From: a virus
Lineage: Duplodnaviria > Caudoviricetes
Virus record (IMG/VR): IMGVR_UViG_3300032270_000211
Coordinates: 1 to 28,213 of that record
DNA length: 28,213 nt
Reading direction: 5' to 3' (one strand)
Shown here: positions 1-13,718 of the stretch, in pieces
How the letters are laid out: every line of letters begins with the position of its first letter
How positions within the stretch are numbered: position 1 is the first letter of the stretch
The notes under the pieces: generated by a model
What the model was told of the DNA's origin: nothing
The model's input: the letters and a program-made list of their open reading frames with translations, nothing else
Database searches by the model: none
Position numbers and translations under genes: made by a program

Positions 1-105
1 CAAGAAATGCAGCAAATGCCGCCTGAAATGGGTATGATTCCACCTGAATCGGCTGAAATGCCGCCAGAAATGATGAATATGCCGCCCCAGGAGCCAATGG
101 TATGA
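1..105 (+). CDS. C-terminal low-complexity tail of probable portal protein (5' truncated)
   Basis: Frame 1 is open from the window start (QEMQQMPPEMGMIPPESAEMPPEMMNMPPQEPMV*). Its TGA at 103-105 overlaps the next ATG. The Q/M/P/E-rich tail and the position upstream of scaffold/capsid suggest a portal; the identity is an inference. Confidence 0.55.
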   Translation, partial: QEMQQMPPEMGMIPPESAEMPPEMMNMPPQEPMV

Positions 106-464
106 ACGCCGCAGACTTTGTAGGTACGCTGTTTTTAGGCCGTGATGTGGCTCATTCAGTGCATCTAAACACCCGCAGTTACGCCAAACACAAGGCGCTG
201 CAAAAGTTTTACGACGGTATTGTTGATCTGGCAGACAAGTTTGCTGAAGCCTACCAAGGCAAGTACGGTCTGATTGGCTCTATTTCGTTGCAGTCTGCAA
301 AAAAACAGGGCAACATCGTTGAGTTTTTAGAAGGCCAGCTAGACGAAATACATTCTGCGCGCTACAAGGTCGTTGATAAGGAATGCACCGCAATCCACAA
401 CATTATTGATGAAATTGAAGCGCTGTACATGTCAACGCTGTACAAACTGAGGTTTCTTGCATGA
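102..464 (+). CDS. Dps/ferritin-like four-helix protein (DUF5856-like)
   Basis: AHSVHLNTRSYAKHKALQKFYD...DKFAEAYQG parallels the Dps H..H...H...Y...D..AE pattern; ATGA overlaps at both ends. Confidence 0.7.
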   Translation: MNAADFVGTLFLGRDVAHSVHLNTRSYAKHKALQKFYDGIVDLADKFAEAYQGKYGLIGSISLQSAKKQGNIVEFLEGQLDEIHSARYKVVDKECTAIHNIIDEIEALYMSTLYKLRFLA

Positions 465-7408: not shown

Positions 7409-7864
7409 ATGCCTAACGCTTTAGCGCCACCAAGCAAGAATAAACTGGCTCAAGGTTTGCGCCTTACGCCAGATTATTCTATTGCGCCTGAAGCGGAGTT
7501 AGGCACTTGGACTGCTGCCGACGAAAAAGCGTTTCAAACAGGCATTCGGCAAACCCCTTGGTATGCCCAATTCATCAAAAAATTTGGTGGGCCGCCTGAC
7601 TTAAACTCACCAGAATACAATTACCGCGCAGCGTGGAAATCAGGGATGCGTCCGCAAGATTACGAGTTTGATAGAGAAATGCAACATTGGGGTAGCGTTA
7701 CACCCCAAGGTAAAAGCGTTAAATCTACTAGCCATCCAACTGCTTGGATGGAAGATTATATGAGCGTAACTGGCCGTGACCCCCACACACCGGGCGCCAT
7801 GACCCCCGCGCAAATAGAGGCAATACAACGCGGTTTAGTGTACCGATACGGTGGCATGAAATGA
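7409..7864 (+). CDS. hypothetical protein between adaptor and tail stabilisation genes
   Basis: 151-aa ORF filling the gap exactly; contains YNYRAAWKSG..P...HW...K...HPT. Confidence 0.7.
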   Translation: MPNALAPPSKNKLAQGLRLTPDYSIAPEAELGTWTAADEKAFQTGIRQTPWYAQFIKKFGGPPDLNSPEYNYRAAWKSGMRPQDYEFDREMQHWGSVTPQGKSVKSTSHPTAWMEDYMSVTGRDPHTPGAMTPAQIEAIQRGLVYRYGGMK

Positions 7865-11835: not shown

Positions 11836-12171
11836 ATGACAGTCACTGTTAAAGTACTAATCCCTGCCAAAACGGCAGAAAATAGTCAGACCACGCAGTA
11901 CACTGCGGCTGGGGTGACCACCATTATCGACAAGTTTACGGCCACTAATTACAGCGCGTCTGCCGCTACGATTAGTGTCAACTTGGTAACTGGTGCCGAT
12001 ACGGCGGGTAACCAAAACTTAATTACCAAAACGAAAACATTGCAGCCGTCCGAAGTCTACACATTTCCAGAAATTGTAGGCCAGGTCTTGGCACCGAGCG
12101 GTTTTATCTCTACTATCGCGGGGACTGCTAGTGCGATCAATATTCGGGCATCGGGTCGCGAGGTAACGTAA
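11836..12171 (+). CDS. hypothetical virion protein
   Basis: 111-aa T/A-rich beta protein; SD GAGG. Confidence 0.7.
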   Translation: MTVTVKVLIPAKTAENSQTTQYTAAGVTTIIDKFTATNYSASAATISVNLVTGADTAGNQNLITKTKTLQPSEVYTFPEIVGQVLAPSGFISTIAGTASAINIRASGREVT

Positions 12172-12174
12172 CGT

Positions 12175-13044
12175 ATGGGCGCTATTGAACTTTTTGATGC
12201 TGACGGCACGGCGGTAGCTACCGCCGAAGCCATGCGTCAACGAGTCGTTGCGCTGCAAGATTCATTGCTGGAAATGCCGCAGGCCGATATCGTGACAACA
12301 CACACGTTTCTGCCTGGCGTGTATGAACGAAAGATTACGATACCGCCTTGGACAGTTTTGACAGGCGCTGCGCATAAGACGGATTACCGCGTGCGGTTGG
12401 AAAAGGGCACGATTGCGGTGAACCGTGATACGGAAGTGGTTGTGTTGACGGCGCCATGTGAGTTTGACGCCAAAGCAGGTGAACAGCGCGCAGGCCGCGT
12501 GTTTGAAGATGAAGTGGTTTGGGTGGATGTGTACGACAACCCCGACGATTGCCAAGACATACCGACGTTAGAAGACAGACTGTACGTTGTGCCGGAGTGT
12601 GGATTGGGCGATACTCGACGTCAGTTAGCGATTGAATCAGCGCAAACAGACTATCAGTTGTTTTTAAAGCAGTTGGGTATGGATCAGCCCACAATGGACG
12701 CGATAGTAACCATTGAAAGTGATCTAGTTGATATGCCGGAAGGGCACGATGTAGAGTTAAAAGCGTCGCCAGTGCACGGTATGGGCATGTTTGCTACGCG
12801 GTACTTTTTTGCCGGCGAAGTTATTTGCCCCGGTCGATTGGATGGTAAGCGTACTCCGGCAGGCCGGTACATTAACCATTCGCACGACGCAAACGTAATA
12901 CCGTACAAGTTTGGTGACGATTTATACGTGATTGCTTTAAAAGATGTGGGGGTTGGTGGGGAACTTCTAATAGATTACCGAGACGCCATCCGTGCAAATT
13001 TTGGCTTTTACTTACCCAAGGAAACATTATGTCAGGATTCATAA
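12175..13044 (+). CDS. cupin-like domain fused to SET-domain (lysine methyltransferase-like) protein
   Basis: C-terminal SET motifs SPVHGMGMFA, RYINHS and ELLIDY; N-terminal HTFLPGVYER..IP...LTGAAHK...APC...G.QR.G..FED.VW cupin-like pattern. Confidence 0.85.
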   Translation: MGAIELFDADGTAVATAEAMRQRVVALQDSLLEMPQADIVTTHTFLPGVYERKITIPPWTVLTGAAHKTDYRVRLEKGTIAVNRDTEVVVLTAPCEFDAKAGEQRAGRVFEDEVVWVDVYDNPDDCQDIPTLEDRLYVVPECGLGDTRRQLAIESAQTDYQLFLKQLGMDQPTMDAIVTIESDLVDMPEGHDVELKASPVHGMGMFATRYFFAGEVICPGRLDGKRTPAGRYINHSHDANVIPYKFGDDLYVIALKDVGVGGELLIDYRDAIRANFGFYLPKETLCQDS

Positions 13045-13718
13045 CCGGTAGCGTAATTAGCGCATACGGCTCTAACCAAGCGGCTAAAAAACAACTTGAA
13101 GGGCAGCGCGAGGCTACGGCCGCGCAAGAGCGCATGTTTTACCGGCAACTGCAGTTGCAAGAGCCTTTTCGGATGGCTGGCGTTAACGCGCTGCCCGAAC
13201 TAATAGCTGCATCACGGTACACGCCGTTCAGCATGCAACAATTTAAAGCCGATCCCGGCTACGCGTTTCGGTTGCAAGAAGGCTTAAAATCGCTTGATCG
13301 CAGTGCTGCAGCACGCGGCGGCTTGTTATCGGGCGCCACGCTAAAAGGCGCTTTGCGCTACGGTCAAGATATGGGCTCGCAAGAATACACTAACGCGTTT
13401 AACCGCTATCAAGCTGAACGCGCGGCGCGGCTAAACCCACTGCAAAGTTTGGCAGGCATGGGGCAAACATCGGCTAATACATTATCAAACGAAGCGGGTC
13501 AATACGGCCAAAACATGGCGCAAAGCGCTACTCAGATGGGCAACATCCGCGCGTCTAATTACGTCAATACAGCTAATGCGCTGACAAGCGGCTTAAGTGG
13601 ATACTTAAACCAACAGCAAAATCAGCAAATGATGGATAGGTTTTTCCCGCAACAAACACCTAATGCTGCACCTACTTACGGGTCGCCTTATGACCTTAAC
13701 GCTCAAAATTATGGTTAA
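13029..13718 (+). CDS. DNA ejection (pilot) protein, P22 gp7-like
   Basis: A/G/Q/N-rich; DPGYAFRLQEG, AAARGGLLSGATLK and LQSLAGMGQ patterns; first of three ejection genes; SD AAGGA. Confidence 0.75.
   Translation: MSGFITGSVISAYGSNQAAKKQLEGQREATAAQERMFYRQLQLQEPFRMAGVNALPELIAASRYTPFSMQQFKADPGYAFRLQEGLKSLDRSAAARGGLLSGATLKGALRYGQDMGSQEYTNAFNRYQAERAARLNPLQSLAGMGQTSANTLSNEAGQYGQNMAQSATQMGNIRASNYVNTANALTSGLSGYLNQQQNQQMMDRFFPQQTPNAAPTYGSPYDLNAQNYG

Follow-up and report, generated by a model that had tools for sequence, protein, structure and literature searches.

SET domains serve methyl transfer to nitrogen through a terminal tyrosine and a set of SAM motifs, and in the canonical enzymes the 'EY' tyrosine and the i-SET form the peptide groove and the lysine channel. 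In phages T7 and P22 the first ejection gene is immediately preceded by gp13 and gp14, respectively; these belong to the sequence families PF11090 and DUF2824, and we take both to have a GNAT-like fold. A plant Rubisco SET enzyme is said to methylate an alpha-amine. This activity was not found in the available text of the review PMC10293735, in which the N-alpha methyltransferases named are seven-beta-strand enzymes only; NTMT1/2, METTL13 and PrmA use SAM to methylate the alpha-amine after removal of Met, the first residues determining the specificity, and PrmA carries a separate recognition domain. The nearest viral SET protein, vSET (A612L of chlorovirus PBCV-1; 1n3j, 3kma), is a stand-alone enzyme which is packaged and methylates host H3K27, according to the accessible part of PMC7019647. 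The T7 counterpart of the P22 ejection protein gp7, gp14, is described as water-insoluble and as forming an outer-membrane pore (PMC8954989, in the text available); a modification of its tip could thus matter for loading or for membrane entry, although this is a guess.

The locus described here was found in a 28,213-nt window, the whole stretch of DNA analysed, from a P22-like podophage contig (IMG/VR record IMGVR_UViG_3300032270_000211). The structural genes run in the order scaffold, coat, gp4-like adaptor, gp10-like head closure, fibre, a 111-aa ORF, the fusion gene and the ejection gene; two larger genes, for which a family search gave no match, follow and precede the lysis and replication genes. 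We refer to the first ejection protein as the pilot. The features of the locus are as follows:

11836..12171, + strand, 111-aa beta-rich ORF of unknown family, upstream of the fusion gene
12175..13044, + strand, cupin-mini-SET fusion gene, 289 aa; PHROG 34170 over residues 20-273, E 9e-36
12283..12582, + strand, cupin (double-stranded beta-helix), residues 37-136; this is the part of the slot gene that is conserved, and in the present protein it has no canonical metal site
12607..12723, + strand, helix hairpin, residues 145-183, which accompanies the SET core in stand-alone and SET-first proteins as well
12736..12993, + strand, minimal SET core (residues 188-273) that lacks both an i-SET and a Cys-rich post-SET
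12778..12795, + strand, SET motif I GMGMFA, SAM binding
12865..12882, + strand, SET motif RYINHS, SAM binding
12961..12978, + strand, SET motif ELLIDY, with the terminal Tyr268
13018..13031, + strand, AAGGA ribosome-binding-like site and pilot ATG, within the end of the fusion gene
13029..13718, + strand, gene of the gp7-like first ejection protein (pilot), 229 aa, whose N-terminal segment is hydrophobic and which is the putative substrate; PHROG 598, DNA ejection, E 2e-44
13032..13037, + strand, pilot Ser2-Gly3 codons, the SET-linked signature and proposed methylation site (Ser alpha-amine after Met removal)

A first-pass annotation, made from the sequence alone, had placed a cupin-SET fusion after the tail genes and before the gp7-like ejection gene, in the slot of P22 gp14, and this position, which is also that of T7 gp13, stands. 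The 16-nt overlap of the fusion gene with the ejection gene (13029-13044), which it had also recorded, is present; as a meaningful feature it was rejected, since it is not conserved among 88 SET representatives, in which the overlap exceeds 4 nt in 32, is 1-4 nt in 33 and is lacking in 23. From the comparisons set out below we propose, with a probability of roughly 55%, that the SET domain methylates the N-alpha amine of the pilot serine after Met removal, during assembly.

Membership of the SET superfamily, in a minimal form without i-SET, is confirmed. The Pfam SET family scores 35.7 bits (cut-off 22.4) and is the only Pfam match of the fusion protein at E up to 1; thus no relationship to the gp13 and gp14 families was detected. 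Both the N-terminal cupin and the C-terminal SET fold claimed earlier were matched in an AlphaFold model of the whole protein, in which helices connect the two (mean pLDDT 82; pTM 0.54, the placement of the domains relative to each other not being fixed by the model), the SET core giving structure matches of Z 10-12 (7w6a, Z 12.2; 1zkk, Z 11.2, rmsd 2.0, 78 residues aligned). The three hallmarks which had been read from the sequence lie at residues 202-207 (GMGMFA), 231-236 (RYINHS) and 263-268 (ELLIDY), and in place of a Cys-rich post-SET, rightly given as absent, the model has a helix after Tyr268. The helix hairpin had been overlooked; it lies N-terminal to the SET core in every architecture seen and, modelled together with the core, forms one folding unit (pLDDT 96, pTM 0.88) whose best structural matches are MLL1, EZH2 and SET8 (Z 9.5-10.6, rmsd 2.0-2.2 over 78-85 residues; MLL1, Z 10.6, rmsd 2.2, 85 aligned).

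The motifs are not degenerate. Across 135 SET segments of about 33% identity, drawn from the best 150 of 2477 representatives and picked by query similarity, which favours conservation, Ser198, Gly204, Asn234, His235, Glu263 and Tyr268 are kept in 100% and Gly202 and Asn240 in 99%; the motifs are also intact in 49/49 loci which were not selected on them. Purifying selection on the fusion gene is evident among 20 close relatives, dN/dS being 0.09 in the SET core and 0.05 in the cupin plus hairpin. What the domain lacks, a point which had also been overlooked, is the i-SET: in 125 of the 133 representatives matched, GxG and NH are 29 residues apart, as against 63 in MLL1 and 68 in SET8, which corresponds to a loss of about 35 residues (34-39 across MLL1, EZH2 and SET8), and Ala or Gly stands at the position of the 'EY' tyrosine. 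The domain therefore differs from the canonical SET lysine methyltransferases, in which the lysine side chain lies in the peptide groove, and the loss of the 'EY'-strand Tyr with the i-SET could mean weak or no catalysis. With vSET it shares a small viral core, the NH pair, the terminal Tyr and the absence of a Cys-rich post-SET (profile match E 7e-11; Foldseek E 5e-6 to 3kma), although vSET was not among the matches listed in two wide VIA structure searches; in contrast to vSET its core is shorter and comes with the hairpin and a cupin partner, and its gene is tied to that of the phage's own pilot.

The cupin, residues 37-136, is matched by 4e2g (Z 12.0, rmsd 2.9, 93 aligned; Foldseek E 1e-6). 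Metal-dependent cupins carry His-x-His...Glu/His and a second-motif His; the corresponding positions here, by motif mapping, are Ala65, His67, Tyr71 and Arg105, so this cupin does not have the site of a metal-dependent enzyme, whereas many other members of the family retain two or three His at these positions. In the SET-bearing representatives, for most of which cupin motifs played no part in the selection, conservation reaches 99-100% at Arg52, Gly78 and Gly102, and the metal-ligand positions vary. Without a metal site the cupin of this phage is likely to be a binder, and judged from these residues a binding role is more likely than metal catalysis. The earlier suggestions for this half of the protein are thus not supported: a second catalytic unit is at odds with Ala65, Tyr71 and Arg105, and a methyl reader needed by the SET domain is at odds with a cupin-motif scan in which 114/120 loci have the cupin alone. 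The PHROGs label 'short tail fiber/adhesin' of the cupin likewise finds no support in the globular barrel fold or in the gene position; PHROG 12032, PHROG 24280 and many RefSeq records carry the cupin-only family as 'short tail fiber' or 'tail fiber adhesin', apparently a propagated mislabel.

The two folds together also raise a different chemistry, in which the SET domain S-methylates methionine, either free or as the initiator Met of the pilot, and the cupin processes the sulfonium product. BurB, a SET-fold protein, carries out S-methylation, and the fold matches include the BurB-Met complex 9l4t (Z 7.3) and the cupin DMSP lyase DddK (5tfz, Z 10.9). Neither is a top or a distinctive match, however, the cupin of the window has no metal ligands and usually occurs without SET elsewhere, and residue 2 of the pilot is small, and hence Met-cleavable, in 88/88 SET representatives; we regard this chemistry as very improbable.

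The family is large. The fusion protein has 1173 homologues, and in IMG/VR the mini-SET pattern fits about 900 stretches and that of the cupin about 1700. Among the best 150 representatives there are 116 cupin-SET, 17 SET-cupin, 13 cupin and 4 SET proteins, and 80 related IMG/VR loci comprise 49 fusions, 30 cupin-only genes (166-183 aa) and one that is cut off. The cupin is thus the constant part and SET is optional, with cupin-alone forms present even in close relatives; three cupins of 202-205 aa (P0125, P0128 and P0135) end in an eroded hairpin remnant, consistent with ongoing loss of SET. Among cultured phages, the fusion is carried by Rhodoferax phage P26218 and by Pseudoalteromonas phage PH1, both with a pilot that starts MSG, and the cupin alone by RSB3 (ORF39, at the T7 gp13 position), Shewanella phage X14 and RSK1. 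PHROG 34170, the fusion family, includes the protein of the window and records no function, whilst PHROGs 12032 and 24280 are cupin-only. A search of NCBIfam with the fusion protein gave no match, and the ESM Atlas returned only unnamed viral clusters, the nearest named family being Cupin_2 (15-33% of members). No description of the cupin-SET family, or of phage SET enzymes in morphogenesis, was found in the literature, subscription journals and supplements lying outside the scope of this search, and the parts available of PMC9728967, PMC8954989, PMC2938197, PMC9011153, PMC4657236, PMC4517105, PMC10975493, PMC7019647 and PMC10293735 do not describe the family.

A pilot-like gene comes next in 364 of the 386 loci in which the next gene is visible (172/179 SET, 192/207 cupin-only), and 31 of 40 sampled pilots matched ejection, internal or structural virion PHROGs (17/20 SET, 14/20 cupin-only). 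In four loci (L092, L163, L381 and L345) the pilot has an apparent leader before the hydrophobic segment, in some cases ending in a Cys-rich motif; these leaders are possibly cleaved, as is annotated for the P22 gp7 leader.

The start of the pilot depends on the slot gene. For this comparison 685 loci were collected and 360 kept, those dropped having no visible next gene (125), a cut cupin (64), no match (64), SET only (46, including fusions cut by the contig end), a non-pilot next gene (17) or too little upstream DNA (9). Pilots begin with M-S-[G/A/S] in 155 of 172 SET loci as against 2 of 188 cupin-only loci; most cupin-only pilots begin M-x-W/F, with an aromatic residue 3 in 137/188, as in T7 gp14 (MCW). 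Within the clade of the window all 49 fusion loci have MS(G/A) and all 27 cupin-only loci MAG. The difference was retained on dereplication at 70% (59/72 vs 2/118) and in loci obtained from cupin-pattern scans alone (6/9 vs 2/156). The rule was fixed before a later set of loci was fetched, from which those at least 70% identical to earlier ones were removed, and in this set the signature was present in 27/32 SET and 0/67 cupin-only loci. It is not universal, as 14 of 88 SET representatives with intact motifs do not have it.

The link was also tested with independent pairs on two trees. On a cupin tree of 220 rows there were 20 state changes and nine independent supported pairs, of which 7.5 were concordant and 0.0 opposite (median p 0.008, at most 0.125). 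The pilot-body tree (120 rows; 51/59 vs 0/61) gave 11 pairs, 9.5 vs 0.0 (p 0.002). The trees were built with FastTree on 137 columns and contain many open forks, and a looser trait, a non-aromatic residue 3, was not significant on the cupin tree (2.6 of 9 pairs, p 0.25). The presence of SET is thus linked to the M-S-[G/A/S] start under tree control, and the co-variation is confined to residues 2-3: the excess mutual information with SET reached 0.58 for residue 3 and 0.19 for residue 2, whereas none of the 194 columns of the pilot body exceeded 0.12 and the start of the next gene gave 0.08 or less, and the second ejection gene does not carry the signature (1/70 vs 2/113).

The same data bear on the possibility that SET and the first pilot codons are simply inherited as a block, the true substrate being a lysine on another virion protein. 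In the clade of the window the first ten or so pilot codons do move with the slot gene (compare L005 with L052), and the second ejection protein contains 8% Lys. Where SET is not adjacent to the pilot gene (SET-first or split forms) the signature was found in 3/6 loci compared with 71/82 of adjacent ones (p 0.049), thus suggesting that some hitch-hiking is possible; such loci are few, six in this comparison, and still lie above the cupin-only level (p 0.0005). Stand-alone SETs in other morphogenesis contexts, described below, point the same way. However, the signature holds across cupins less than 60% identical (36/44 vs 2/75), occurs in 18 of the 23 SET loci without gene overlap, and falls sharply past residue 3. 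Both codon families are used for Ser2 (TCN 50, AGY 33), and under the ATGA overlap, which forces codon 2 to begin with A, the SET loci encode Ser in 27 cases and Thr in 1 whereas the cupin-only loci encode Thr in 28 and Ser in 24, so that the signal is at the amino-acid level. Block inheritance is therefore an unlikely account of the whole pattern.

The first-pass annotation had assumed a lysine acceptor, for which the pilots give no encouragement. There is no SET-linked Lys column among the 194 pilot columns, no Lys occurs before residue 17 in the 88 SET pilots or before residue 16 in either group, and 33 of the 88 have none within the first 45 residues. As Ser plus a small residue is found almost only when SET is present, the N-terminus rather than a lysine is likely to be what is methylated. 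There is, nevertheless, some lesser chance, perhaps the most serious competitor, that the SET domain recognises the Ser-small N-terminus without methylating the alpha-amine, either as a SAM-liganded binder or chaperone or by docking there and methylating a lysine farther along. Recognition of this kind would account equally for the co-variation and sits well with the missing i-SET and 'EY' tyrosine, and the pilot of the window does have Lys20-Lys21. The invariant terminal Tyr and SAM motifs, however, fit catalysis better than binding, and a more distant lysine is hard to reconcile with the lysine-free pilots and with the lack of an enriched Lys column.

Methylation of the pilot alpha-amine would make the phage enzyme comparable in chemistry to NTMT1/2, METTL13 and PrmA, and their specificity through the first residues after Met removal appears to have its counterpart in the genomic co-variation at residues 2-3. 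The resemblance would not extend to structure or motif; the phage enzyme has the SET fold in place of the seven-beta-strand fold, and the pilot motif is Ser-small as opposed to the X-P-K/R of the N-alpha methyltransferases (PMC10293735, available text).

In the scheme we infer, each step, from Met removal, the amine acceptor and catalysis to the role of the cupin and the purpose, is conditional. Through coupled translation the pilot would follow the enzyme directly. An initiator Met with Ser behind it is a substrate of methionine aminopeptidase, and the host is likely to trim the pilot in this way, leaving a free alpha-amine on Ser. The cupin would probably hold the hydrophobic N-terminal segment of the pilot during assembly, and the SET domain, its lysine groove deleted, may then use SAM to methylate the Ser alpha-amine, the only amine near the constrained residues, a small next residue being needed for entry into the shallow SET site. 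The outcome could be a capped and more permanently cationic tip, which replaces or supplements the usual aromatic residue 3, or protection of the terminus.

Such an enzyme would probably act in assembly inside the infected cell and not as an injected effector, and of the targets suggested at first it is the phage's own ejection protein, by virtue of the SET-linked pilot signature, that is the likely one. Methylation of a host protein, by an enzyme that enters with the virion or is made late in infection, has a precedent in vSET and its action on histone H3K27 (PMC7019647, available part); the SET fold is common to vSET and the phage protein. A host target would, however, leave the pilot signature unexplained, and it does not agree with the position in a late structural operon or with loci spread over phages of very different hosts. 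The virion proteome table of phiPsa17 (PMC4517105, in the part available) does not list gp13, the analogous slot protein of T7-like phages. We consider a host target improbable. No virion proteome of a cupin or cupin-SET carrier was found in the literature searched, in which supplements, which could hold some, were not included.

The slot itself may have a more general role. It had been claimed that many podoviruses carry a GNAT-like gene here; such genes do occur in the slot, but not as a strict alternative, for they co-occur with the cupin. A gp13-like or GNAT gene was found directly upstream of the cupin in 6/129 cupin-only and 1/78 SET representatives (L258, L113, L123, L149, L566, L590 and L595) in a survey which applied Pfam to 29 chosen proteins and seven-seed phmmer to 207 upstream ORFs. 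In L258 the gp13-like gene, the cupin-SET gene and the pilot gene follow in succession. The gp13-like and GNAT genes can therefore adjoin the cupin and are not simple substitutes for it. In Bordetella phage BPP-1, bbp24-bbp23-bbp22 (L687:2480-3810) are a GNAT gene, an eroded cupin and a small pilot-like gene starting MSG, and they stand before the portal gene, not before ejection genes. As a tentative generalisation, for which we would claim somewhat less than even odds, phages may cap the membrane-entering tip of the first ejection protein by means of a SET-fold N-alpha methyltransferase dedicated to virion assembly, the T7 gp13/P22 gp14 slot being a general station for handling the N-terminus (by cupin, GNAT-like protein, mini-SET or combinations of these), each with its own pilot N-terminal code.

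The cupin-SET protein is a real, widespread and uncharacterised form of SET with a specific substrate prediction, and an unannotated but abundant phage family thereby gains a testable, named site. If the prediction is true, it would represent a new acceptor chemistry for SET domains and the first methylation step in phage morphogenesis, and it would give a handle on the role of the gene preceding the ejection genes in T7 (gp13) and P22 (gp14); protein labelling, too, could make use of an N-terminal methyltransferase of 135 residues that reads a two-residue code.

The hairpin-mini-SET unit also occurs as stand-alone genes (the L224:2350-2742 region, L228, L255, L259, L261, L266, L252, L273 and L279). 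These stand just before small or large terminase-like genes, or between portal and scaffold, with no pilot downstream, and some hairpin-SETs are fused to the small gene preceding the scaffold. The SET family is thus not dedicated to pilots, and the stand-alone forms may have other N-terminal substrates.

Around the fusion gene itself, the opposite strand is closed by stops and no excess of repeats, promoters or terminators was found nearby. The 111-aa ORF upstream, which has no Pfam, PHROG or named ESM Atlas family, is carried by only some relatives, whether or not SET is present, and is 71-99% conserved in these; elsewhere the end of the fibre gene takes its place. A second ORF without a match in family searches (151 aa, window 7409-7864) lies between the gp4-like and gp10-like tail genes, and the structural region also includes a Dps/ferritin-like gene (window 102-464; PHROG 858, starvation-inducible regulator, E 1e-25).
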